Below, in pieces: positions 2,749-63,123 of a DNA stretch of 64,000 nucleotides; the stretch's first letter is position 1; every line of letters starts with the position of its first letter. A program made the translations under genes and the position numbers. The notes under the pieces were generated by a model, which was not told the origin of the DNA, ran no database searches, and saw nothing but the letters and a program-made list of their open reading frames with translations. The stretch comes from Escherichia phage REP8: sequence record OQ174507.1; one strand, written 5' to 3'.

Positions 2749-4164
2749 ATGAGCGAATTATTTATACATGCGCACCTTCATGCAGGTCGAACTGAAAATG
2801 GTGCTGTAAACCATACTTCATCAATGTCTGCTCTTGTGGACTTTTACAAAGCTGCTGGTTCTAGCCGTAGCAATGTAGAAATCTTACCAGACTTGTTCTA
2901 CAAAGCTTTGCATGAAGATGTTGATGTTGCAGTTCGTATTTTACTGCATATGCGAGATGTACGAGAAGGTATGGGTGAGCGTAAAGCTTTCCGAACTGTT
3001 TTACTTCAAGCGATTGAAGATAAAGTTTTAGAGTCTACGCAGGTTCTTCGCATTATGGATAAGATTGCAGAACTTGGTCGTTTTGATGACTTCAAAATCT
3101 TCGTAGGTACTCGTTTCGAGACAGATGCCTTCAAACATTTAGAAGCAGCATTACTAGACCCTGCAACAGCAGGTTTAGCAGCTAAGTGGTTACCACGAGT
3201 AAAACCACGTCACAAACAGTTTGTAAAACGTTTCTGCAAGTTTGCAAACTTGAGTGAGAAAGAGTACCGCACACTGCTGTCTGCACTATCTGATACAGTT
3301 GAGCAAAAAATCTCTGCTAATGAGTTTGGTAAGATTGACTACAGTAAGATTCCTTCACTTGCTGCTGCACGTTACCAAAAACTGTTTAACCGTAAAGATG
3401 GAGAGCGATACAAAGCTTACATCGAGTCCTTATCAAATGGTGAGACTAAGATTAACGCTGGTGCTGTTTACCCATACGATGTGATTAAATCTGTCAAGTA
3501 TGGTAATGCAGATGTTGCTAATGAGCAGTGGAAAGCACTACCAAACTGGATGGTAGAAGGTGAAAACATCTTGTGTATGACTGATGTTTCAAGCTCAATG
3601 TCTTGGGTGAATCTTGGCTCAATTACTGCCCTTGATATTGGTGTATCACTTGCCTTGTATGTAGCAGAACGCAATACAGGTTGCTTTAAGAACGAGTTGA
3701 TGGTTTATTCAACAAACCCTCACTTCATCGAACTGAGTGGTGATTTACGAAACCGTCATCGTCAGGTGATGCGACACGTTGAATATGGCTCAACTAACTT
3801 ACAAGCAGCTTTTGACCGTATTCTTGAGATAGGTAAAAGAAACAACTTGACTCAGGAAGATATGCCAAGTAAGCTTATCATCTTCTCCGATATGGAGTTC
3901 AATCAGGTTGATGGTGCTAACGGTCGTACAAACTTTGAAGCAATTCAGAGTAAGTACAAAAAAGCTGGATATGAGATGCCACAACTGGTATTCTGGTATT
4001 TAGCAAACCGTAATGGTACTTGCGAAGTATCTGTTAAGGATAACGGTGTAGCAATGGTATCTGGTTTCTCTCCAGCCACTTTAAAAGCTCTGCTTGGTGG
4101 TGAGAAGTTTGACCCAACCAGTGTAATGCTCAAAGCAGTAATGATTGACCGTTATATCTGGTAA
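2749..4164 (+). CDS. vWA domain protein (MIDAS motif), possibly Ro60/TROVE-like
   Basis: 471 aa; DVSSSMS matches the DxSxS MIDAS motif of vWA domains; TROVE assignment is from memory only. Confidence 0.45.
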   Translation: MSELFIHAHLHAGRTENGAVNHTSSMSALVDFYKAAGSSRSNVEILPDLFYKALHEDVDVAVRILLHMRDVREGMGERKAFRTVLLQAIEDKVLESTQVLRIMDKIAELGRFDDFKIFVGTRFETDAFKHLEAALLDPATAGLAAKWLPRVKPRHKQFVKRFCKFANLSEKEYRTLLSALSDTVEQKISANEFGKIDYSKIPSLAAARYQKLFNRKDGERYKAYIESLSNGETKINAGAVYPYDVIKSVKYGNADVANEQWKALPNWMVEGENILCMTDVSSSMSWVNLGSITALDIGVSLALYVAERNTGCFKNELMVYSTNPHFIELSGDLRNRHRQVMRHVEYGSTNLQAAFDRILEIGKRNNLTQEDMPSKLIIFSDMEFNQVDGANGRTNFEAIQSKYKKAGYEMPQLVFWYLANRNGTCEVSVKDNGVAMVSGFSPATLKALLGGEKFDPTSVMLKAVMIDRYIW

Positions 4165-4329: not shown

Positions 4330-4406
4330 CTCTGTTTAGCTCAGCTTGGTAGAGCGTTCCGTTTGGGGCGGTAAGGCCGGAGGTTCAAGTCCTCCAACAG
4401 AGACCA
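4330..4406 (+). tRNA. tRNA-Pro (anticodon TGG)
   Basis: acceptor CTCTGTT/AACAGAG, T-arm GGAGG-TTCAAGT-CCTCC, anticodon loop TTTGGGG, CCA encoded. Confidence 0.6.
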
Positions 4407-4413
4407 AATTAAT

Positions 4414-4491
4414 GTTCCAGTAGACAAAATGGTAAAGTCACCACTCTTTCAAAGTGGATATCTGAGGGTTCAAATCCCTTCTGGAACGCCA
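4414..4491 (+). tRNA. tRNA-Glu (anticodon TTC)
   Basis: acceptor GTTCCAG/CTGGAAC, anticodon stem CCACT/AGTGG with loop CTTTCAA, CCA encoded. Confidence 0.6.
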
Positions 4492-4582
4492 GTTTTGACA
4501 GAAGACCAATTACAGCAAACTTAATCTACTCATCTGACAAGAAATCGGACAAAGAAGATATTTGGTCTGGTCATTAAGAATT

Positions 4583-4656
4583 GCGGGTATAGAGAAAGGG
4601 CGTCTCACATGTCTCATTAGCATGGTATCGGCAGGTTCGACTCCTGCACCCGCCTC
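4583..4656 (+). tRNA. tRNA-Met (anticodon CAT)
   Basis: anticodon stem CATGT/GCATG with loop CTCATTA; T-arm GCAGG-TTCGACT-CCTGC; acceptor register uncertain. Confidence 0.5.
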
Positions 4657-4742
4657 CAAATTTACAGAAGACCGTTTACAGCAACATTTATTAAATTTTT
4701 AGCGGAAAAAATTGAAAGATACGGTCTGGTAATACTAAATAT

Positions 4743-4816
4743 GGTTAGGAAGCACATAAGGTATGTGCGGTCGCCTGTTAAGCGAATGGCACAGGGTTCG
4801 AATCCCTGACTAACCG
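4743..4816 (+). tRNA. tRNA-Asn (anticodon GTT)
   Basis: D-stem GCAC/GTGC, anticodon loop CTGTTAA, T-arm CAGGG-TTCGAAT-CCCTG; no CCA encoded. Confidence 0.55.
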
Positions 4817-4827
4817 CAAATTTAAAT

Positions 4828-4915
4828 GTGTCGTTATCCCGTAGATGGTAGCGGTGGGGACTGTAAATCCCTTGTCATTGAGACTCGGTAGGTTCGACTC
4901 CTACACGGCACACCA
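4828..4915 (+). tRNA. tRNA-Tyr (anticodon GTA), long variable arm
   Basis: 88 nt; acceptor GTGTCGT/ACGGCAC, anticodon stem GGGGA/TCCCT with loop CTGTAAA, CCA encoded. Confidence 0.55.
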
Positions 4916-4920
4916 ATAAA

Positions 4921-5006
4921 GGTTATGTAGTTTAATTTGGTTAAAATACTTCCACGTAAAAGGATATTGGGAGATGATGTGAGTTCAAGTCTCATCGTAG
5001 CCGCCA
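4921..5006 (+). tRNA. tRNA-like gene, anticodon arm unresolved
   Basis: 86 nt; good acceptor GGTTATG/CGTAGCC, T-arm GTGAG-TTCAAGT-CTCAT and CCA, but no canonical 5 bp/7 nt anticodon stem-loop found by hand. Confidence 0.35.
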
Positions 5007-5158
5007 ATTTTGAGAGGGCTATTTAGAACCTCCCTTAAAGGGTTCTTACGAGTATCCTTTAAAGGAGCAGAAGACCAAATTCAGCAAGTTACTTAAAATT
5101 TCAAGCCAATTCAATTTTGAAAAATTTAAAACTTGGTCTGGCTCAACAAATTTACAGA

Positions 5159-5283
5159 AGACCGTTTACAGCAAAACTTAAACAATCTATTTCTCGGTAA
5201 AGAAAAGGAGAAGGTTCGATTCCTTCACTCGGCAGATGTCGAGTTGGTGTAATGGTAGCACTTAAGATGATAAACAACGGTCT
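5159..5283 (+). ncRNA. circularly permuted tRNA-like module closed by an 8 bp stem (Y-RNA-like candidate)
   Basis: order is T-arm GAAGG-TTCGATT-CCTTC, acceptor 3' strand ACTCGGC, AGAT, acceptor 5' strand GTCGAGT, D-arm-like GGTGTAATGGTAGCAC; flanked by AGACCGTT (5159-5166) / AACGGTCT (5276-5283). Confidence 0.35.
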
Positions 5284-5286
5284 GGT

Positions 5287-5430
5287 AATTATCTTTGTAG
5301 ATAAGTTATTAAGCTTACCTGTGAGTATGCGACCACAAAGGGTGAAAGGGTAAATTCTAGATTTAAACCCAACAAGGCACATCGCTACAGACCTTAAGCA
5401 AGTCTGGGTAGCTTATCTACAAAGATAATT
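5287..5430 (+). repeat. structured element closed by a perfect 19 bp inverted repeat
   Basis: AATTATCTTTGTAGATAAG (5287-5305) pairs with CTTATCTACAAAGATAATT (5412-5430); ~106 nt interior holds sub-hairpins. Confidence 0.55.
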
Positions 5431-5434
5431 TAAT

Positions 5435-5510
5435 GGAAGTGTAGCAGAATGGTGATGCGGCAGACTTTTAATCTGACAGGCGATGGGTTCGAATCCCTCC
5501 ACTTCTACCA
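5435..5510 (+). tRNA. tRNA-Lys (anticodon TTT)
   Basis: acceptor GGAAGTG/CACTTCT, anticodon stem CAGA/TCTG with loop CTTTTAA, CCA encoded. Confidence 0.55.
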
Positions 5511-5514
5511 AAAT

Positions 5515-5590
5515 GGTTCAGTCGCAGATAAGGTAATGCAAGGGTCTCATAAGCCCTATGAATGTGGGTTCGATTCCCATCTGAACCTCC
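5515..5590 (+). tRNA. tRNA-Met or Ile2 (anticodon CAT)
   Basis: acceptor GGTTCAG/CTGAACC, anticodon stem AGGGT/GCCCT with loop CTCATAA, CCA encoded; 1-72 paired so not a bacterial initiator. Confidence 0.55.
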
Positions 5591-5593
5591 AAA

Positions 5594-5669
5594 GCTGTGA
5601 AAGCACATATGGATGTGCATTCGGCTGATAACCGAAAGGCAGAAGGTTCGAATCCTTCTCACAGTACCA
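5594..5669 (+). tRNA. tRNA-Ile (anticodon GAT)
   Basis: D-stem GCAC/GTGC, anticodon stem TTCGG/CCGAA with loop CTGATAA, T-arm GAAGG-TTCGAAT-CCTTC, CCA encoded. Confidence 0.65.
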
Positions 5670-5684
5670 ATTTCAATAAAGTTG

Positions 5685-5713
5685 TTGACATTGAGATGTG
5701 ACCACTTTATAGT
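5685..5713 (+). promoter_or_regulatory. sigma70-like promoter inside the tRNA array
   Basis: TTGACA, 17 bp spacer, TATAGT. Confidence 0.5.
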
Positions 5714-5917
5714 AACCTTAGTTTTCGTTGCGTAGCGTCTATTTTGCAAATTTAAAATAAATGCAAACGACAATGTTTTTCTGGCAGTAGCTTGATAGGC
5801 TAAACACCAGTGAGGTCTTCCAACCCCTCATCAAAGAATTTGGCGTACTAGCCCACGGTATGATTAATAAGGTGGGCATCTTTAAGGGCTTTCTAAGAGA
5901 GTCTTTAAAGATAATTA

Positions 5918-5999
5918 CGGGGCGTATCTCAGCTGTCTTCTAAACAGCCGTTAATCGAGTAAGTGGAGTATGCGGGTTCGAGTCCTGCCGCCTCGACCA
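5918..5999 (+). tRNA. atypical tRNA-like gene with Arg-type anticodon loop (TCT)
   Basis: 82 nt; acceptor CGGGGCG/CGCCTCG, perfect hairpin GCTGT-CTTCTAA-ACAGC, T-arm and CCA present, but only ~5 nt where the D-arm should be. Confidence 0.35.
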
Positions 6000-6238
6000 A
6001 TTTAGTTAGCAGATTACTTAGACGACCTTAGCGGGTCTTCCTGTAGGGAGGTGGTCTGTATCTCATGTTTTCCAGAACATGTAAATAATCTGAGAAGGGG
6101 CTTTACAGTGTTGAGATAATACGGTAAGCTTCGAATTATAGTATGGGACGATGTTAAGACTCTAAGGCATGAGCAACGGCTTCCAACACCGTTTCAAAGG
6201 GGTTCAACTCCTCCGTCACATGCCAAAGTCTTATTAGG

Positions 6239-6326
6239 GGTAGGTAGCGGCTAATGGTAGCCAAACTGTCTTGAAAACAGTTGCCACTGTAGAGATACGG
6301 TGAGGGTTCGACTCCTTTACTTACCG
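6239..6326 (+). tRNA. tRNA-Ser (anticodon TGA), long variable arm
   Basis: 88 nt; acceptor GGTAGGT/ACTTACC, anticodon stem ACTGT/ACAGT with loop CTTGAAA. Confidence 0.55.
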
Positions 6327-6483
6327 CCTAATAAGATTTAAAGCCAAGCTTCATTCGGATGTTGCTTTGGTATACCGCGTGTATTGTTGTACACATTGAT
6401 AAAACACCTAGTAGGTGTCACGGAGAAGAGATAATATCAAGCTCTCCAAAGGTTCTAGTCACCGGATTAAACAAGACTATGCA

Positions 6484-6505
6484 AAGACCTTTTTAGGTCT
6501 TTTTA
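6484..6505 (+). terminator. rho-independent terminator-like hairpin inside the tRNA array
   Basis: AGACC-TTTTTA-GGTCT followed by TTTTT. Confidence 0.4.
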
Positions 6506-6583
6506 GAGGGCTTCTAAGGTTATTACAGCTTGTTGTGGAACCTTGTTGCTTAGGTTCTTAGAAGTTCTCTAAAAAGACTTAAT

Positions 6584-6661
6584 GGGAGATTGACGGTAAT
6601 TGGTAAACCTATCTCGCTTAGAACGAGATGTTTGAGGGTTCGAATCCCTTGTCTCCTACCA
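6584..6661 (+). tRNA. tRNA with anticodon TAG (Leu by anticodon; short variable region)
   Basis: acceptor GGGAGAT/GTCTCCT, anticodon stem TCTCG/CGAGA with loop CTTAGAA, A73, CCA encoded. Confidence 0.45.
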
Positions 6662-6668
6662 AATTAAT

Positions 6669-6744
6669 GCAGGTGTAGCAAAATGGTTATGCGGCTGACT
6701 CTTAATCAGTAAGACGATGGGTTCAATTCCCTCCACCTGTACCA
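6669..6744 (+). tRNA. tRNA-Lys (anticodon CTT)
   Basis: acceptor GCAGGTG/CACCTGT, anticodon stem GCTGA/TCAGT with loop CTCTTAA, CCA encoded. Confidence 0.55.
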
Positions 6745-6750
6745 GACATT

Positions 6751-6826
6751 GGGGATGTAGTTTACATGGTTAAAACATAAGTTTTGCAAACTTAAGTACA
6801 GGGTTCAATTCCCTGCTTCTCCACCA
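6751..6826 (+). tRNA. tRNA-Ala (anticodon TGC)
   Basis: D-stem GTTT/AAAC, anticodon stem TAAGT/ACTTA with loop TTTGCAA, T-arm CAGGG-TTCAATT-CCCTG, CCA encoded. Confidence 0.6.
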
Positions 6827-6832
6827 ATTAGT

Positions 6833-6907
6833 GCATCCATAGTTTAAACGGGAAAATTACAGTCTTCCAAACTGAGGTTGAGGGTTCGATTCCCTCTGGA
6901 TGCTCCA
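6833..6907 (+). tRNA. tRNA-Gly (anticodon TCC)
   Basis: acceptor GCATCCA/TGGATGC, anticodon loop CTTCCAA, T-arm GAGGG-TTCGATT-CCCTC, CCA encoded. Confidence 0.55.
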
Positions 6908-6913
6908 AATAAT

Positions 6914-6990
6914 GCTGCTTTCGTATAATTGGCTATTACACATCCCTTGTAAGGATGGAAATGCAGGTTCGAGTCCTGTGAGCAGCACCA
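6914..6990 (+). tRNA. tRNA-Thr (anticodon TGT)
   Basis: acceptor GCTGCTT/GAGCAGC, anticodon stem CATCC/GGATG with loop CTTGTAA, CCA encoded. Confidence 0.6.
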
Positions 6991-6992
6991 AT

Positions 6993-7080
6993 TCAGAGGT
7001 CAAGTGAAAGACCGCTGGTGTCAACTGAAGACCGTAACAAATTCCACGGAGTTGAGTTAGCGGCACAACTTCAGACCTCT
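6993..7080 (+). ncRNA. long imperfect hairpin (candidate small RNA or processing element)
   Basis: nested stems CAGAGGTC/GACCTCTG, CCGCT/AGCGG, CAACT/AGTTG, CCGT/ACGG; contains a GAAGACCGT motif. Confidence 0.35.
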
Positions 7081-7085
7081 TTCAC

Positions 7086-7160
7086 ACTCGCTTAGTTTAT
7101 ATGGTAAAACATCACCCTTACAAGATGAAGAAAAAGGTTCAAGTCCTTTAGTGAGTACCA
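7086..7160 (+). tRNA. tRNA-Val (anticodon TAC)
   Basis: acceptor ACTCGCT/AGTGAGT, D-stem GTTT/AAAC, anticodon loop CTTACAA, CCA encoded. Confidence 0.5.
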
Positions 7161-7161
7161 T

Positions 7162-7239
7162 GTTCCAGTATCCCAATTGGCAGAGGATGCAAGCTCAAAC
7201 CTTGTATTAGTGACGGTTCGAATCCGTCTTGGAACACCA
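7162..7239 (+). tRNA. tRNA with anticodon CAA (Leu by anticodon; short variable region)
   Basis: acceptor GTTCCAG/TTGGAAC, anticodon stem GCAAG/CTTGT with loop CTCAAAC, T-arm GACGG-TTCGAAT-CCGTC, A73, CCA encoded. Confidence 0.45.
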
Positions 7240-7258
7240 ATTTTAAGAGGCTATTTAG

Positions 7259-7816
7259 ATGAGATATTTGAAGTATGCTTCATGGATTTTCCTAGCTTTA
7301 CTAGAGCCATTTGCAGCAACCCTAGCAGTCATCTTAGCACCTTTCGTAGTTCCATTCTACAGTGAGAAGAAAGGGCATCTACCTTTTGGATTCAGATGGA
7401 TGGAGACCTATGACAACCCGATTGATGGTGACAAAGGCCACGTTGAGAGATGGGCTAAGATTAGAAAGATTGGTAAGCTCGGTGTTTATATGCAGAGAGT
7501 TGGGTGGCTCTGGAGAAACAAAGCTTATAACTTCTCTTACCATGTATTAGGAAGAGATGTAAAAGATGTTACTAAGTGGAAAGGTAATATCAACGTAAGT
7601 TCTGACCCTGAAGATAATCAGACTGGTTATCTCCTAATGTGGAACAGTAATGCTTGGGGATTATTCGCTTTTATCCCATCAATTAAAGTCTTTGGTAAAC
7701 AGTTTTACTGGAGAATTTATATTGGATGGAAACTAAAAAGCGTTGTCCCAGAAGAAAGAGCATTCTCAAGGGAAAGAGTTATGTTGGCATTCTTTATTCA
7801 TCCACTGAGAAAGTAA
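7259..7816 (+). CDS. hypothetical membrane protein encoded inside the tRNA array
   Basis: 185 aa; AAGAGG RBS 8 nt upstream of ATG; hydrophobic N-terminus (WIFLALLEPFAATLAVILAPFVV). Confidence 0.45.
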   Translation: MRYLKYASWIFLALLEPFAATLAVILAPFVVPFYSEKKGHLPFGFRWMETYDNPIDGDKGHVERWAKIRKIGKLGVYMQRVGWLWRNKAYNFSYHVLGRDVKDVTKWKGNINVSSDPEDNQTGYLLMWNSNAWGLFAFIPSIKVFGKQFYWRIYIGWKLKSVVPEERAFSRERVMLAFFIHPLRK

Positions 7817-7824
7817 AGATTTAA

Positions 7825-7900
7825 AGGGGATTAGTTTACAAGGTTAAAACCTCGGTCTTTGAAATCGAAGAAGTTGGTTCAATTCCAACATCCCCCGCCA
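7825..7900 (+). tRNA. tRNA-Gln (anticodon TTG)
   Basis: anticodon stem TCGGT/ATCGA with loop CTTTGAA, T-arm GTTGG-TTCAATT-CCAAC, CCA encoded. Confidence 0.5.
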
Positions 7901-7902
7901 AT

Positions 7903-7981
7903 GCTCCATTACTCCAATTGGCAGAGAGGCCAGACTTAAAATCTGTGTTATGTATCGGTTCGAATCCGATATGGAGTACCA
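7903..7981 (+). tRNA. tRNA with anticodon TAA (Leu by anticodon)
   Basis: acceptor GCTCCAT/ATGGAGT, anticodon stem CAGA/TCTG with loop CTTAAAA, A73, CCA encoded. Confidence 0.45.
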
Positions 7982-7986
7982 AATTT

Positions 7987-8062
7987 AGCGGTATAGCATA
8001 ACTGGCAATGCAACAGTCTCTGAAGCTGTCCTATTAAGGTTCAAATCCTTATGCCGCTGCCA
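7987..8062 (+). tRNA. tRNA-Gln (anticodon CTG)
   Basis: acceptor AGCGGTA/TGCCGCT, D-stem GCAT/ATGC, anticodon stem ACAGT/GCTGT with loop CTCTGAA, CCA encoded. Confidence 0.55.
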
Positions 8063-8093
8063 CTTCTAAGGATTCTTGCGAGAGTCCTTAAAT

Positions 8094-8169
8094 GTGGCCT
8101 TATCATAAATGGTAATGACCCATGCTGTGAACATGGTCTATACGGGTTCAAATCCCGTAGGTCACCCCA
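8094..8169 (+). tRNA. tRNA-His (anticodon GTG)
   Basis: acceptor GTGGCCT/AGGTCAC, anticodon stem CCATG/CATGG with loop CTGTGAA, C73, CCA encoded. Confidence 0.6.
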
Positions 8170-8174
8170 ATTTA

Positions 8175-8251
8175 TAGTCCAAGTAGCTTATATGGTTAAA
8201 GCGCGTGTCTGAAAAACATGAGAAGAGGGTTCAAATCCCACTGGACTACCA
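8175..8251 (+). tRNA. tRNA-Phe (anticodon GAA)
   Basis: acceptor TAGTCCA/TGGACTA, anticodon stem CGTGT/ACATG with loop CTGAAAA; 3' end register uncertain. Confidence 0.5.
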
Positions 8252-8267
8252 ATTTCAAAGGTGCTTA

Positions 8268-9002
8268 ATGAAAGAGATGACAGAACAAGGTAAGGAGATT
8301 TTTAATCTCTTAAAAACCGGTAAAGGGTTTTCTAATCCCCTTATTACTGGTGCAGCAGTCCTCGGTGGAACCGTAGCTGCTTCTACATCACTTGTAAGCT
8401 CTATTAGTTCTGTAACAGACCCTACAATGAAGGAGAAACTTGTTACTGCTGGACTTACAACAGTCCTTCTAAACAGCTTTACAACAAGCCTTACAAGCAC
8501 TACAGCAACTACTAAGACCCTAACAGACTACGGTCAAAAGTCTATTGATGAGTTTTCATCACGTATGCAGGTAGCAAAGGGATACTCTAATGTTATGGGT
8601 GCAGCAGGAGAACAAGTTGGTTGTACACCATTCAGTGGTATTATGGGTGTTGCTACAGAGTATGGTCAAAAAGCTATTGACATGATGAACAGTACACTAG
8701 ATAGTGTTAATGGTGTGTTAAGTGACTTACAAGATGCTATTGATAAGGGTCTTGATACTGTTTCTGATTTAGCTGAGCAAGCTGTTAGTAAGATTAATGA
8801 AGGTATTTCGAAGATTACAGCTTATGCAGATGAAGTTGTGCAGATGATTGAAGAAGAAGCTGCCCTTATTGCAGAGTACCTTAAAACGAATATCAATGGG
8901 TTCTTAGCAGGTATCTTACCAGACTGGTTTGATGATGCTTGTAAAACTGGTGTGATTGAAACTATTGCAACACCAGAAATGAAGAGCGCATTACAGAAAT
9001 AA
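8268..9002 (+). CDS. hypothetical protein
   Basis: ORF-track frame 8205..9002 begins inside tRNA-Phe; in-frame ATG at 8268 with AAAGG upstream is the more likely start. Confidence 0.4.
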   Translation: MKEMTEQGKEIFNLLKTGKGFSNPLITGAAVLGGTVAASTSLVSSISSVTDPTMKEKLVTAGLTTVLLNSFTTSLTSTTATTKTLTDYGQKSIDEFSSRMQVAKGYSNVMGAAGEQVGCTPFSGIMGVATEYGQKAIDMMNSTLDSVNGVLSDLQDAIDKGLDTVSDLAEQAVSKINEGISKITAYADEVVQMIEEEAALIAEYLKTNINGFLAGILPDWFDDACKTGVIETIATPEMKSALQK

Positions 9003-9004
9003 AT

Positions 9005-9097
9005 GGAAGATTAACCCTAAAAGGTAAGGGAGCAGTTTGCTAAACTGCCAGTAGCTGAGAAATCGGTGTACCAGTTCAAGTCTGGTATCTTCCTCCA
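9005..9097 (+). tRNA. tRNA-Ser (anticodon GCT), long variable arm
   Basis: 93 nt; perfect acceptor GGAAGAT/ATCTTCC, anticodon stem GCAGT/ACTGC with loop TTGCTAA, CCA encoded. Confidence 0.6.
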
Positions 9098-9101
9098 ATT
9101 T

Positions 9102-9177
9102 GAATCCGTGACAGAAATGGCTATGTGCCTGTCTGCAAAACAGGTTTATAAGGGTTCGAGTCCCTTCGGATTCTCCA
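9102..9177 (+). tRNA. tRNA-Cys (anticodon GCA)
   Basis: perfect acceptor GAATCCG/CGGATTC, anticodon stem CCTGT/ACAGG with loop CTGCAAA, CCA encoded. Confidence 0.65.
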
Positions 9178-41232: not shown

Positions 41233-41500
41233 CATCTGGTCAATACACTCGCAAGGTGTACCAGTTCTCTTATGAACTTCTCCGCATTTCTACGGAGTGT
41301 CGGACTATATCACGTAGTAGTAATACTACCGTTGCACTTGGGAATGGTCATTAGCTTACCACCCTACTCTACTCAGTTCATACATTAAGTATGCTTTTCG
41401 ATAGTCTCTGAACGTTCCTCTCAAGAGGCTTCGCTGCTGATTACCGTATCTTCTCAGACTTAGGCTTCCAGCAATTCACAACGTTTTACATGCGCCACTG
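41233..41500 (-). ncRNA. group I intron in the DNA polymerase gene
   Basis: 268 nt; exon ends ATGCGT and intron nt 6-11 GCGCAT form P1; GTTCAGAGACTA (R) and GATATAGTCC (S); last nt G; opens with a stop in frame; no ORF inside. Confidence 0.6.
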
Positions 41501-43673
41501 ACGCATAAATGCCATTTTTGGCTTTCTTACGACCTTTTGTAATCTCGTGGAGAAGTTCCTCATCCTGTGTCTCCCTGCAACGAACAATATCCTCTTCTTT
41601 GTTAAGACCAAAGTAAATACTGTTCAGTGTATGCGCATCAGTCCCTGTGTAGACTTCATAGAGGTCGTTCTCAGCATCATAACGAAGATACTTATCAGTT
41701 TCTGGATTAAGATACTTATCGAGATGCTTGCAATAGTATCTGCCATCTTCTTGCTTAGTGAACTCTACTGACTCTTTACCCTCAGTTACCGCTTTGGTGA
41801 ACTCTTTATCACCCATAAAGTTACAAAGAAGAACAAGCTGTGCAGAGTTCTGGTCAACTGAAACGATATTAGTCCCTTCCTCGCAAATCCAAACCTCCCT
41901 CATAGGCGCTCCATAGACAGCAGCACCAGACGGTACGTTTACAATACCATATTGTGTCATACGTCCAGTTGAAGTACCAAACACCATTGCACCAGCACTA
42001 AGGCGACCATCAGGACGAATCTGGTTCAACCAACCTTTTTCATCATCCTTTGAGTTCTCAATAGTTCTGCGTCGGTGCATCAAAGTATAGTACTTAGCAA
42101 TCTTCTGTCCAAGCTCACCTTCAATCGTGTCATAAGATGATTCAGTAAGTTTTGGTGAAGTACGGATTAAGCAAGGCTCAAGCAAATCTGTGTATTTCTT
42201 CACAGACCAGTTATGTTCAATGTACTGTACACCTTCATGCTCAACATAGCTCAAACCACACCGCTCAACCATTTCCTGCCACTTAGGATGCTTTGTAATC
42301 ATCTTTTTATTGTCTTTGAAACGACAAACTTTAACAGGGCGACCATCTGAGTCTTTCTTGTAGTTCCAGTCATCTGGAATCCAACCAACTGATTTCAAGT
42401 AGTCTTTAACAACTGCTACCTGAGTCATACGAGAAACTTCAAACTCAATTGGTGTATACGGTGCATCAATCAAACCTGTGTAGCGACTCGACTCAAGCTC
42501 AAAGTGGTTAACAACGTGGCTGTTATAGTACTTCACAGTTTTGACTGTTTTTACTGGCTTCCAGTCTTTGCATTTCTTACCAATCTTTGCGTTCAACTCA
42601 TTGCAAATTGCACGAGCATCCTTCATTGCTACAAAACCTTCTTTGTACTCTTCACCAGTTACAGAGTTGGTTGGTGTATAGCAATTCCGCTTTTCAATGT
42701 TAAAAATCTTTGTAGTTGGCTTACCAAATGGCTTGATTTCATATGTCTGCATCTCACCGTTACGTACCTGTTGACGATACTTTGTCTTAGGGTACTTGGT
42801 AATTCTCTTCAGTCCATCTGCATGACCAAATGCTTCAACATACTCATTCCAAGCTTTTGCAAACTCTTCTCCAGTGACTTTACCTTTGGTCTTAATAGTT
42901 GGAGGTAGATGTGGTTCAACCTCTGAAGCAAGCTCATTAGTCAACTTGTCAAGTTCCTTTACATGGAACTCCATAAGTTCTTTATCAGCTTTCCAGCCAT
43001 TGATAGCTTGTTGACTCATCCAGAAAGATGTTTCTTTAGCTCGCATGTAGGTTTCATAGGTGTCTACGCCACACTTCTTTAGCTTCAGATATTCATTATC
43101 CAATGCACGTTTAGTTTTGGCGTTGATACGGATATCTTCTACAACACGAGTGAAGATTTCTGCATTCCACACACCCCAATGTTCAATCTCTGGTTTACGA
43201 ACACCAACACGAGCACCCCATGCAGCCAAGCCATGAGCACCTTTATAACCCTTTGGAGTTGGCCTATCCATCCACTGAACACGAGACTGGATAAGAGAAT
43301 CCTGAAAGAAATTACTCCACGGTTTACACTTTGGATTATCAAAGTTCCATAAATCAGGTGCAATGTGATTGAAAACCCACCAGTCATAACCGAGACCGTT
43401 ATGGATGCAAAGACGTTTTGCCTTTAACGCAAATTCAACACCTTCACGTAAACCACCCTTGATGTACTTAGTGTACTTGTGACCGAGGATAGGTTCATCT
43501 GTAAAGACCCATACAGGTGGCTCTTCATCGTCAGATTTATAGTCTGCGAAAGCCATTACGTGCACTTTAGTGAACTCAAGAAGTAAACCATCAGTTTCTG
43601 TATCACCAACTAAATGTAAGTTTTTAAAATCTACGTTTTCCATTTTTACTCCCTCTAAAATCATTAACCTCAT
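41501..43673 (-). CDS. DNA polymerase (family A, T7-like), exon 1
   Basis: N-terminal exonuclease motif LVGDTETDGL; ends ...RKKAKNGIYA in the middle of motif B. Confidence 0.65.
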
Positions 43674-56821: not shown

Positions 56822-58018
56822 ATGAACAAAGTACAGATTATTAAAAAGAATGGCTCACTCGAAGAACCTGATATCAAAAAAGTTTTAACAGCAGTCACAA
56901 AGTCAGCTAATAGGGTTGGGTATAAAGAACTCCCGCCAGATGTTACCCAAGCTCTTGAGTCAGCATTTATGAGGGTTCTGGTAAAATCCACTAAGCAGAA
57001 TAATTTACTCGTTTCAGTAAATGATATTCACAGTATTGTTGAGGGTGCTTTGGCAGAAGTCAATCACGAGATTTATGAGTCTTACTCAACATATAGAAAT
57101 TACCGTAAAGAGGTTGCTCAAAACTGGGATGAACTCTACCAGAAGACTAAAGATACACTCTTCTTAGGTGACCGTGAAAATGCTAATTTTGACAGCAGTT
57201 TAATTTCTACGAAAGGTTCAATTATCCGTGGTTACCTGACTAAAGAAATCTTTAAACAGTATCATCTAACACCAGAGGAACTTGAAGCCATTGAGAAAGG
57301 CTTTGTCTATATCCATGATTTAAGAGACCTGATTTTTGGTGGTATTAACTGTTGCCTGTTTGACATTGGTAAAGTACTAAAAGGTGGCTTTGAAATGTCC
57401 GGCATTGAGTACTGTGAACCTAAATCTGTACTGTCAGCGTTGCAGGTTATTGGTGACGTAGTACTTTCAGCAACTGCACAGCAATTTGGTGGTTTTACTT
57501 TAGCAGAGATTGATAAGGTACTTGTACCGTATGCGAAGAAGTCTCTACGCTATCATGCTGAGAAAGCATCATCTTATGGTATCCCTAAAGAGCATTACCA
57601 CAATTATGTCATGGAGCAGCTACAGATTGAACTGACTCAAGGTTTCCAGTCGCTTGAAATGAAACTAAACACTGTACCTTGTAGTCGTGGGGATTTTGCA
57701 TTTACAACTTTGACATTCGGGTTACTTGACTCAGACATGTCTAATGAAGACAACCGACTGCAATACATGATTGCAAGTACTCTCCTAGATGTTCGTATGA
57801 ATGGACAAGGTAAGAGTAAGAAGCCTGTTGTATTCCCTAAACTGGTTTATATTTATGACCAGAAGAGACATAATGAGAATATCTGTCAAGGCCACCTGTA
57901 CAGTAAAGCTATAGAGTGTTGCTCTAAAGCGATGTATCCAGATTTCTTAAGTGTATCTGGTCATGGTGCTGTAGCAGAAGCTTTTGAGCGTTCTGGTAAG
58001 GTTATTTCACCGATGGGT
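56822..58018 (+). CDS. nrdD: anaerobic ribonucleotide reductase, exon 1
   Basis: ATP-cone-like N-terminus; ends ...ISPMG with T as last exon nucleotide; an in-frame TAA opens the intron. Confidence 0.65.
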
Positions 58019-58334
58019 TAACAAGCTCTATAGCTCATCTAAAACGTGCCTAAACAGGGAAACTCTACAGATGTAGACAATCCTGTGCTAAATGATGTAC
58101 GATGTAAGAAACTATACAACATAGGGGTCTTACATGCCAAATAACTTCGAATATGAGTTTGGATACATCTAAATGCCGAACGACTAACCGTGATGAATGT
58201 AGCGGTGTAGGGTCAAGCGACTCGAAATGGTACGCTACTTAGAAATAAGTAGAAGATATAGTCTGGACTTACTGGCGACAGTAAGCAGCTTGAATAAAGC
58301 GGGGTAAGCGTAGCGAACTTACCTGAACAACAAG
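58019..58334 (+). ncRNA. group I intron in nrdD
   Basis: 316 nt; AAGATATAGTCT (S element), GACTAA (R/P7 region), last nt G, preceding exon ends in T; no ORF inside. Confidence 0.6.
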
Positions 58335-61959: not shown

Positions 61960-62230
61960 AGAAAAGTGGGAGATTTTACCATTAGTCAGTGAAGGAGGTA
62001 ATGGTTGTGAGATGTACATGATACGTGGTCATGTTCCAGAACCAATTGCACTTGAGATGGTAAACAACTTTACAGATGGTTCTTACAAAGACTTAGGAGA
62101 GCCAACTATAAAGCATCAATGGGTAAAGCCTGTACCAGACAGCACAGGTAACTGTAGTGTACTTTACCACGTTGTAGACCCTGTAAAATGCAAATCTGCA
62201 ATGGCAGTAACAAACGTAACTTTTGATTGA
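61952..62230 (+). CDS. hypothetical protein
   Basis: 92 aa. Confidence 0.3.
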   Translation: MAKEKWEILPLVSEGGNGCEMYMIRGHVPEPIALEMVNNFTDGSYKDLGEPTIKHQWVKPVPDSTGNCSVLYHVVDPVKCKSAMAVTNVTFD

Positions 62231-63123
62231 GAGAGAAAACTATGAAAACATCTATCCGTGTCACAATTCATTCACCGACTAAAGGAACTCACGAAGAAGA
62301 GTTTAACATCATCCAATTCCCCTCTGGTGAGATTGGTGGCCACTTTTCACAAGAGCTTGTTGATTTTACTGCTTATGCAGCATCATCTATTAACAATGTG
62401 GTTATGATTGTAAAGGGTTATGACAAAGACACACTGTTTGCTGTGGCACTGGCTAAAGAAGCAATTGACGATTTAGTTCCTCATGATTATGCCCTGAAGA
62501 CTGTCATTTTTTACTACTTGCCAAATGCACGATACGACCGTCACATGTTTAAAGGCGACGCAGCAGCTTTAAAGGTTTTTGCTAAACAGGTAAATGCAAT
62601 GGGATTTGGTGCAGTCTGTGCAGTTGACCCTCACAGTTATGTACCAGATAACCTGTTTAACTGCTTCCAAAGTATTCCTCAAAAGGAAATTGCAGTCCAT
62701 TATGCAAATGACCCTCTGATTGATTACTTAGTAGCCCCAGATGCAGGTGCTTCTAAGAAGATTGCAGAGACTGCTAAAGAGGTGGATAAACCATATATCA
62801 CAATGTCTAAAGTACGTAACCTTAAGACTGGTGAAATTACTGGTATGCGAATCCTTGATGATGTTGATTTGACAGATAAAACCGTCATGATTCTGGATGA
62901 TATCTGTGATGGTGGTCGAACCTTCGTAGAAGCAGCGAAACATCTTCGTGAAGCAGGTGCAAAACGTGTGGAACTTTATGTAACACATGGTATTTTCTCT
63001 AAAGGTGTTGAAAACTTACTTGACAATGGTATTGACCACATCTACACTACAAACTCTTTAGGAGAAGCTAAAGACCGTAGCTTAACACATTATAGTCAAG
63101 TTACTGTAGCAAACCTTGATTGA
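62227..63123 (+). CDS. ribose-phosphate pyrophosphokinase (Prs)-family protein, candidate ADP-ribose pyrophosphate synthetase
   Basis: 298 aa; C-terminal VMILDDICDGGRTFVEAAKHLREAGAKRVELYVTHGIFS closely matches the Prs PRPP-binding loop. Confidence 0.6.
   Translation: MREKTMKTSIRVTIHSPTKGTHEEEFNIIQFPSGEIGGHFSQELVDFTAYAASSINNVVMIVKGYDKDTLFAVALAKEAIDDLVPHDYALKTVIFYYLPNARYDRHMFKGDAAALKVFAKQVNAMGFGAVCAVDPHSYVPDNLFNCFQSIPQKEIAVHYANDPLIDYLVAPDAGASKKIAETAKEVDKPYITMSKVRNLKTGEITGMRILDDVDLTDKTVMILDDICDGGRTFVEAAKHLREAGAKRVELYVTHGIFSKGVENLLDNGIDHIYTTNSLGEAKDRSLTHYSQVTVANLD

Follow-up and report, generated by a model that had tools for sequence, protein, structure and literature searches.

What occupies the only long gap in a densely packed run of phage transfer RNA (tRNA) genes, and does it do anything? 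The window analysed here, a stretch of 64,000 nt from Escherichia phage REP8 (OQ174507.1), is of Felixounavirus type and carries 23 plus-strand tRNA genes at 4330-9177 (ARAGORN). In the run of seven tRNA genes at 6584-7239 the spacers measure 1-7 nt, with the sole exception of a 95-nt gap at 6991-7085 between tRNA-Thr(UGU), which has an encoded CCA (6914-6990, plus strand), and tRNA-Val(UAC) (7086-7160, plus strand), both called by ARAGORN and Rfam. A previous reading of the sequence alone had placed a hairpin of four nested helices in this gap and suggested a small RNA or processing element co-transcribed with the tRNAs. We find that the gap holds an 86-nt element on the plus strand (6995-7080), which is a real, strongly selected and previously unannotated structured RNA of a new, undescribed family.

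All four helices are found in the sequence, where they stack into an imperfect rod. The outer helix P1 pairs AGAGGTC (RNA AGAGGUC, 6995-7001) with GACCTCT (RNA GACCUCU, 7074-7080); it comprises 7 bp and not the 8 bp first proposed, since GACCTCTG should read GACCTCTT and C6994 stands opposite T7081. Internal loop 1 (5' side 7002-7011, AAGUGAAAGA; 3' side 7064-7073 in the rod fold) leads to P2, in which CCGC(T) at 7012-7016 pairs with (A)GCGG at 7059-7063. Beyond internal loop 2, whose 5' side (7016-7020) occurs as UGGUG, UUGAG, UUUGAG or UUGGG, P3 joins TCAACT (UCAACU, 7021-7026) to AGTTGA (7050-7055), and a 5-nt bulge GAAGA (7027-7031), invariant in every copy, separates it from P4 (CCGT/ACGG, in RNA CCGU/ACGG; 7032-7035 with 7046-7049) and the 10-nt apical loop (7036-7045; AACAAATTCC as DNA, AACAAAUUCC as RNA). 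RNAfold returned this rod as minimum free energy (MFE) structure and centroid alike, at -30.7 kcal/mol. Two hundred shuffled sequences gave a mean of -20.8 ± 3.4 kcal/mol (z = -2.96; 1 of 200 as stable as the element), and for 6993-7082 none of 200 reached the stability of the native sequence (z = -3.43), a z of about -3 overall. This fold statistic is by itself only moderately unusual, and since the minus strand folds equally well (-31.3 kcal/mol), thermodynamics alone establishes neither function nor strand. It is the conservation that raises the element above chance.

Compared with phage Av-05, the window shows 82.8% identity over the element (71 of 86 positions), 73-88% over the tRNA genes and 75% over the DUF7338 gene (7259-7816, plus strand), which lies inside the tRNA cluster and has 80% amino acid identity with its Av-05 counterpart; no other non-coding sequence of the region could be aligned between the two. 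The four-fold degenerate sites of the DUF7338 gene are 29% identical and thus saturated. That the element is nearly unchanged while neutral sites are saturated means that selection sees some function in it. At its centre lies an unbroken run of 27 nt (GUCAACUGAAGACCGUAACAAAUUCCA, 7020-7046) that is identical between Felix-like and Av-05-like copies and spans the 5' strand of P3, the GAAGA bulge, the 5' strand of P4 and the loop. Among 29 distinct Felix-like sequences 10 of the 86 columns are variable, on a par with the flanking tRNAs, and the 4-5-nt spacers touching P1 (6991-6994 and 7081-7085) vary freely, unlike the stem. The most variable part is the 5' side of internal loop 2, with substitutions and a 1-nt length polymorphism among Felix-like phages; the 5' side of internal loop 1 is 2 nt shorter in Av-05 (AAUGAAAU), with its UGAAA core retained. 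As these 1-nt and 2-nt indels in the internal loops would break any reading frame, the element is non-coding. Saturated neutral sites, low variation among Felix-like phages and frame-breaking indels together make the strongest case for function.

The element is present in 259 phage records (BLAST), and the conservation in related phages, which the sequence-only reading had named as a check, extends over two phage groups. About 253 of the records are Felixounavirus, Mooglevirus or Suspvirus (Felix-like), and six belong to the Avunavirus group of the Vequintavirinae, a subfamily unrelated to the former (Av-05, in two records, TH18, 18-1-2, 19-1-2 and 24-2-1). A covariance model of the element (R1) found exactly one copy per genome, with scores of 113-122 bits for Felix-like copies and of 68-76 bits for those of Av-05/TH18, and no match in the rest of the window, in T4-like phages that carry DUF7338, in the T4 tRNA cluster or in five other phage loci; with a single copy per genome the element is not a mobile repeat. 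Searches of 5,426 complete E. coli genomes and of 72,556 plasmids (PLSDB) turned up no homologue, and degenerate-pattern scans of IMG/VR and GTDB genomes returned the same phages and chance matches only, the latter including 41 other IMG/VR loci that fit degenerate core patterns. The 19-mer CTGAAGACCGTAACAAATT has eight matches in bacterial genomes, where about four are expected by chance, and none of them has the hairpin. Six of the eight share a common flanking context and are apparently antisense to one conserved coding motif, which we take, reading it untranslated, to be GICYGLQ of glutamine amidotransferase/GMP (guanosine monophosphate) synthase.

In Av-05 the element starts 4 nt after tRNA-Gly(UCC) and precedes a 75-codon open reading frame (ORF) that begins ~36 nt downstream; neither tRNA-Thr nor tRNA-Val adjoins it there. 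In the more distant ounavirus phiEa21-4, an Erwinia phage, the syntenic tRNA-Thr and tRNA-Val genes lie 7 nt apart, and the covariance model detected no copy at that locus even with its filters off. Because of the differing tRNA neighbours in Felix-like phages and Av-05 and its absence from the phiEa21-4 locus, the element behaves like an independent gene cassette, as the tRNA genes of these clusters do.

The structure was compared over 17 distinct sequences, in an alignment fitted to the rod. The rod is 97.9% paired in this set and almost all of its columns are invariant. In P1 the pair G6998-C7077 is replaced by U-A in Av-05/TH18, a compensatory double transversion and the one unambiguous compensatory change in the rod, and on this comparative evidence P1 can be regarded as established. 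P2 is invariant in 17 of 17 variants and, as it never varies, carries no covariation information. The 5' strands of P3 and P4 are invariant save for a G7034A mismatch in P4 of one contig. On the 3' side A7050G turns a P3 pair into a U-G wobble and C7047U a P4 pair into a G-U wobble, both in Av-05, and A7055C (P3, TH18) and G7049A (P4, two records of the wV8 lineage) create mismatches; in the loop U7043 varies to A or C. Since C7047U and A7050G give G-U on the plus strand but A-C on the minus strand, a plus-strand RNA is favoured.

The changes in P3 and P4 have to be seen together with an alternative helix, Y, which pairs GGAGUUG (7048-7054) with CAACUUC (7066-7072), the latter lying within the 3' side of internal loop 1 of the rod, and which excludes P3 and P4. 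Helix Y is paired in every cell of the alignment, in 17 of 17 distinct sequences, and variation is seen at four of the seven pairs (GC/GU; GU/GC/AU; AU to GC on both sides; UA/UG). Its 3' strand changes from UUC to CCU in Av-05 and by U7071C in a Felix-like lineage, with pairing kept or improved, and the rod-breaking G7049A and U7071C are both accommodated. Helix Y appears to fit the sequence variation better than P3/P4 do; the sequence evidence in its favour is nevertheless weak. In Felix-like copies the rod is favoured over helix Y by about 7 kcal/mol, in a calculation that cannot credit the P2 pseudoknot: in the Y conformer the 3' strand of P2 would lie in the Y loop, and P2 would then become a pseudoknot. 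The apical half of the element is therefore either the rod or a two-state element, and while the four nested helices of the first description exist as pairings in the sequence, the comparative data prove only P1 and leave P3/P4 in competition with helix Y. Two further candidates were dropped: helix X (GUGAAA 7004-7009 with UUCCAC 7042-7047), whose sole 'compensatory' change depends on gap placement and in which U7043 varies freely, and a second compensatory pair indicated by RNAalifold (G7010-C7064 to A-U), which was not counted owing to the same ambiguous gap placement.

As the first description had noted, there is no T-run and no obvious terminator. A consensus scan found no promoter-like or terminator-like site at 6990-7090, and an intrinsic terminator can be dismissed, because P1 is followed not by a U-run but by UUCAC and then by tRNA-Val. 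Since it has no promoter or terminator of its own, the element would be transcribed within the seven-tRNA precursor (6584-7239), for which the same kind of scan found no clear promoter. The phrase 'small RNA or processing element' thus named the right class, given the gene-like conservation in two phage groups, the shared orientation and the embedding in a tRNA run; the element may be the one or the other.

We propose that the element is a small RNA that is cut out of the tRNA transcript and acts through its invariant segment on a partner shared by the two phage groups, an account for which we see about as much ground for belief as for doubt. Host RNase E or exonucleases would cut after the CCA of tRNA-Thr and so define the 5' side, and once RNase P had cut at the 5' end of tRNA-Val, the element would retain UUCAC as a tail of 5 nt. 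The freed RNA would be about 86-95 nt long, with its ends locked by the 7 bp of P1 and thereby shielded from exonucleases. Its working part would be the invariant 27-nt segment, which could be displayed in two ways, as a bulge-helix-loop module in the rod state or opened into a single strand when helix Y forms. This segment would bind a partner common to Felix-like and Av-05-like infections, which would be a protein or RNA of the host or else a factor that both phage groups encode, but not the Ro60-like protein of the phage. An extended version, which we regard as rather unlikely, would make the element a bistable riboregulator of a new class, in which the rod sequesters the 27-nt segment and helix Y with the P2 pseudoknot exposes it to capture a host RNA or protein (e.g. 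as a decoy or sponge against a host defence or regulator that targets RNA); in that case it would represent an offshoot, independent of Ro, of the neighbouring Y-like RNAs described below.

Several observations weigh against this proposal. The covariation is thin, as all deep information comes from one branch, that between Felix-like and Av-05-like copies. In P3/P4 two wobble-compatible changes stand against three that break pairs, which resembles the null expectation, and in the Av-05 copy the rod is not the MFE structure (-22.9 versus -24.1 kcal/mol for the helix Y fold) and has a z of only -1.7. Helix Y was found post hoc on the same sequences, and its support consists mostly of transitions at or to G-U pairs. 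What we infer from these data is that a discrete RNA is released, that it works in trans, that it switches conformation and what kind of partner it has. As to a partner, no extended complementarity of the element to the 5,426 complete E. coli genomes was detected, and the best pairing within the phage genome, to its prs gene, has no complementary counterpart at the homologous site in Av-05. Moreover, the genes of the tRNA region of phage Bas63 are mostly dispensable on laboratory hosts (PMC11482910).

The alternative that survives best, though we consider it unlikely, is that the element is a cis-acting processing or stability signal, which directs cuts by RNase P, E or III or blocks exonucleases and has no function as a free RNA. 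Such a signal would plausibly help to mature the neighbouring tRNAs or, in Av-05, set the 5' end of the downstream mRNA. In agreement with this, the element always lies at a tRNA-operon junction, 4-5 nt after a tRNA 3' end, separates tRNA-Gly from the ORF ~36 nt downstream in Av-05, and fills a tRNA-sized slot with a 7-bp terminal helix resembling an acceptor stem; hairpin substrates of RNase P exist, namely the 4.5S RNA precursor and phi80 M3 RNA. However, the other tRNA junctions of the operon manage with spacers of 1-7 nt and no hairpin, and phiEa21-4 joins the same Thr and Val genes directly. A purely structural role would also not require that 27 invariant nt, with a bulge and a loop of 10 nt, be preserved while neutral sites saturate. 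For RNase III in particular the element is a poor substrate: a site of the T7 R1.1 type has a nearly uninterrupted duplex of about two turns that contains no more than a small internal loop, whereas here the helices measure 7, 4-5, 6 and 4 bp and are interrupted by internal loops of 10x10 and 4x3 nt and by a bulge of 5 nt.

A second alternative arises from the gene directly upstream of the tRNA cluster. ORF 2749-4164 (plus strand, 471 aa) matches DUF2828, DUF7788 and VWA and has full-length homologues in 709 phage records, among them mycobacteriophage proteins annotated 'Ro-like RNA binding protein'. As a single-sequence AlphaFold model was unusable (predicted local distance difference test score, pLDDT, 44), a five-sequence profile was searched against the PDB instead; its four best matches were TROVE/Ro60 chains, all of them weak (E = 0.011-0.083). 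The protein is likely the counterpart of gp130 of the Felixounavirus Bas63, which a preprint describes as encoded directly upstream of the tRNAs and as structurally Ro60-like, with the speculation that some Bas63 'tRNAs' are Y RNAs (PMC11482910). The hairpin could accordingly be a fifth, divergent Y-like RNA bound by this protein and related to four repeats, A-D, in the same cluster, a possibility to which we give little weight.

Repeats A-D (4496-4573, 4662-4732, 5065-5146 and 5153-5298, all on the plus strand) fill gaps of the tRNA cluster. They share a closing stem, an AGA/G internal loop, a helix AGACCnnn/nnnGGUCU, a single-stranded segment UACAGCAA, of the form U(U/A)(A)CAGCAA, and a variable insert. 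The closing stem covaries (GAC/GUC, UUAC/GUAA, GAGC/GCUC), and the insert of D forms a tRNA-like four-way junction with T arm, loop-closed acceptor and D arm, which has the look of a permuted tRNA and the topology of YrlA; the Rfam YrlA model gave no match to D at E ≤ 5. A module consisting of a short stem, often AGAC/GGAC..., and (U)ACAGCAA(A/U) recurs in 2-6 copies, on the gene strand and immediately beside the DUF2828 Ro-like gene, in all eight phages examined, including Vibrio KVP40, Aeromonas LAh_9, Campylobacter F360, Mycobacterium MiniLon, Bacillus Tsamsa, Listeria cka15 and Staphylococcus S-CoN_Ph16. By our locus numbers these modules lie at ~2455-2505 of L135, 2010-2430 of L136, 2310-2420 of L137, 3925-4160 of L138, 910-1335 of L146, 1110-1300 of L147 and 2975-3165 of L148. 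Beside the Ro-like gene of MiniLon the Rfam YrlA model RF02553 gave a weak match (37.7 bits), which served as a positive control. No ACAGCAA was found in the tRNA-gene gaps of phiEa21-4, within its tRNA-cluster region at 16-26.5 kb. The CAGCAA module resembles a signature that marks the RNA partners of Ro-like proteins across phyla, and it differs from GNCGAAN0-1G (GGUCCGA in vertebrates), the Ro-binding motif of bacterial Y RNAs, which lies near the 5' end in the terminal stem (PMC4201824). The Y RNAs that go with the Ro-like protein of the phage are likely to be A-D rather than the hairpin, and the tRNA cluster appears to encode a complete Ro60-like/Y-like RNA system.

For the hairpin itself the proximity of a gene with DUF2828, VWA and TROVE/Ro60 matches, the similar view taken of Bas63 in the preprint, the terminal stem that closes the element as it closes Y RNAs, and a sequence ACNGAAGACCGU that its invariant segment shares with B and D at 11 of 12 positions would fit a Y-like RNA; phiEa21-4, in turn, lacks the hairpin and, at least in its first 50 kb, a Ro-like gene. 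Yet Av-05 keeps the 27-nt segment unchanged although its whole genome contains no Ro-like gene (best E = 1.8 in tblastn) and no A-D elements, and because of this the link to the Ro protein is weak. Furthermore, the hairpin (...GACCGUAACAAAUU...) lacks the CAGCAA that accompanies Ro-like genes in eight of eight phages and lies 2.8 kb from the gene. It also has no GNCGAAN0-1G: the 5' strand of P1 reads AGAGGUC (AGAUGUC in Av-05), and the nearest look-alike, CUGAAG, is apical and not terminal. Its similarity to A-D is not significant (local alignment, p = 0.14), it has no T or D arm and no match to RF02553 at E ≤ 10, and GAAGACC, a stem sequence confined to the Felix-like elements, does not occur in the Y-like modules of other phages.

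A constraint that acts on the DNA or on an opposite-strand transcript, with the element serving for example as an inverted repeat bound by a protein, as a site for recombination or homing or as an antisense RNA, appears highly improbable to us. The minus strand does fold as well as the plus strand in Felix-like copies, and homing-endonuclease genes insert in these tRNA clusters. In Av-05 the minus strand even folds much better (1497-1588 of locus L019; three-way junction, -35.1 kcal/mol, z = -5.05), but Felix-like copies do not share this fold, which probably arose as a side effect of the substitutions in helix Y. The changes C7047U and A7050G preserve pairs on the plus strand only, no promoter-like site drives the minus strand here, and the neighbours are all plus-strand genes. 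The arms are imperfect, with bulge and loop as the most conserved parts, unlike a DNA palindrome, and the single copy is not that of a mobile repeat.

Two further ideas have almost nothing left to recommend them. A decaying tRNA gene or other functionless relic might be suspected from the tRNA-sized slot with its 7-bp terminal stem and from several odd or degenerate tRNA-like genes in the cluster, but at 29% four-fold identity a relic should have been erased, whereas the element is as conserved as functional tRNAs; it has no T, D or anticodon arm, ARAGORN called no tRNA in 6991-7085 and Rfam gave no tRNA-clan match there at E ≤ 10, so that its tRNA resemblance is limited to the terminal stem and the earlier statement that it lacks tRNA features holds. 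An antisense regulator of the phage mRNA for phosphoribosyl pyrophosphate (PRPP) synthetase (prs), hardly to be entertained either, would draw on a 23-bp three-block duplex of the invariant segment with 62599-62629 (plus strand) in ORF 62227-63123, at -29.6 kcal/mol an outlier against the genome-wide average of -9.5 ± 3.4 kcal/mol, but, apart from the missing complementarity in Av-05, the site lies at codons 125-135, deep inside the ORF, and in neither genome do k-mers complementary to the segment exceed expectation more than slightly. The NAMPT gene of Av-05, which adjoins prs, contains two GGUCUUCAG sites.

Other known RNA identities were rejected as well. Rfam 15 yielded nothing at the gathering threshold and, at E ≤ 10, two fragments of small nucleolar RNAs at the edges of the element (E 0.68-9.7). 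Hammerhead and other small ribozymes were dismissed since the order and spacing of CUGAAGA and GAAA do not fit a three-way core and there is no Rfam match. Inspection showed no K-turn (kink-turn), loop E, tetraloop-receptor or CsrA GGA motif that both clades conserve. Mimicry of a CRISPR repeat was considered, as CCGCUGG resembles part of the type I-E repeat, but it is the most variable segment of the element.

Over 6500-7700 the window matches Escherichia phages REP9 to REP12 at every base (100% identity) and many Felix O1-like phages at 97-99%. In none of seven feature tables (REP9, bumzen, NBSal004, REP5, Michonne, Av-05 and TH18) is the element annotated as RNA, no paper describing it was found in the literature, and literature searches on Felix O1 transcriptomes and on DUF2828 gave nothing relevant. 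The Felix O1 record (AF320576) annotates a minus-strand ORF107 (3115-3282 of our locus L084) that covers the hairpin as well as overlapping tRNA-Thr and is almost certainly spurious. ORF105 of the same phage (2715-3128 of L084) belongs to a ~430-bp insertion between tRNA-Gly and tRNA-Thr that is missing from REP9. Upstream of the seven-tRNA run, ~80 nt before its first gene, tRNA-Leu(UAG), a terminator-like hairpin on the plus strand (6482-6505, AAAGACCU-UUUU-AGGUCUUU, then UUAG) was not listed by the consensus scan.

The cluster holds additional tRNA-like sequences on the plus strand that ARAGORN missed: a tRNA at 4921-5003 called by Rfam (41.1 bits), a stretch at 5917-5999 that is weakly tRNA-Sec-like (25 bits at 5917-5996) and in which an acceptor stem of 7 bp, a T arm and an encoded CCA can be made out by eye, and a third stretch at ~6150-6232 with a T-arm-like GGGGTTCAACTCCTC near 6190-6232. 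Sub-threshold Rfam matches to transfer-messenger RNA (tmRNA; 5727-5916, plus strand, 15.3 bits, E = 0.0017) and permuted tmRNA (5532-5795, 22.3 bits) may be chance or another tRNA-like RNA; a strong sigma-70-like promoter lies at 5685-5713, upstream of the former. Two group I introns above the Rfam gathering threshold are located outside the cluster, at 41280-41563 (minus strand, 61.7 bits) and 57911-58285 (plus strand, 55.4 bits). In Av-05 another gap of the tRNA cluster contains a non-tRNA hairpin (1279-1335 of L019) with a 10-bp stem CUGUACUGGC/GCCAGUACAG, after which, at 1338-1414, comes a tRNA-like gene whose T loop is odd and which ARAGORN missed. Homologues of DUF7338 with 55-63% identity occur in phage contigs of 102-183 kb, mostly about 170-183 kb (L066-L080), which we take to be T4-like, and in several of those loci the gene again stands beside tRNA genes, a recurring companion of phage tRNA clusters.

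Phages of the Felix O1 type are classic typing, biocontrol and therapy phages of Salmonella and E. coli, yet the element had escaped annotation as an RNA in the seven records examined, with selection acting on it in two unrelated myovirus groups. It offers a defined and tractable case for the old question of what non-tRNA RNAs do in phage tRNA clusters, and together with the apparent Ro60-like/Y-like system the locus is an entry point to a phage RNA biology beyond tRNA supplementation. If the element is only a processing signal, its interest is modest.

Among known RNAs, the Y RNAs (YrlA/YrlB; RF02553) resemble the hairpin in their length of about 80-130 nt, in the stem of the 5' and 3' ends, in their internal loops and in being encoded near a Ro60-like gene among tRNA-like sequences (PMC4201824). 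The hairpin differs from them in lacking the GNCGAAN0-1G and CAGCAA motifs, a tRNA-like domain and an Rfam match, and in persisting in Av-05 where there is no Ro-like gene. The 4.5S RNA precursor, phi80 M3 RNA and the C4 RNA of P1/P7 are likewise rod-like, with a terminal helix that can mimic an acceptor stem, so that RNase P makes the 5' end. The element has no sequence relationship with these, and no 3' RCCA follows its P1 (UUCAC in Felix-like phages, CUAUC in Av-05). Spacer RNAs of E. coli tRNA operons, such as the 3' external transcribed spacer (3'ETS) of leuZ, a sponge of small RNAs (sRNAs), are functional RNAs carved out by RNase E or RNase P and base-pair through a conserved single-stranded stretch, but they are host-encoded, shorter and weakly structured and have known sRNA partners.

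The closest likeness is to rnaC and rnaD of T4 (species 1 and species 2), which are annotated as small stable RNAs inside the T4 tRNA cluster (NC_000866). Like the element, they occupy a tRNA-operon slot in the same orientation and are structured RNAs other than tRNAs; the element, too, is a structured gene that takes the place of a tRNA without being one, reads on the same strand and has no promoter or terminator of its own. Both kinds measure roughly 90-140 nt and would be expected to be released by the tRNA-processing machinery, the T4 RNAs having been demonstrated experimentally as stable species and the element being known here from sequence. Sequence and covariance searches reveal no similarity between them (R1 has no match in the T4 locus at E ≤ 10), their folds differ, and rnaC has a tRNA-like T arm CCGGGUUCGAAUCCCGG that the element does not have. 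To our knowledge, no function has been assigned to species 1 and species 2 since their description decades ago. On the best-supported account, the element would be an RNA of the same kind as rnaC and rnaD, though not their homologue.

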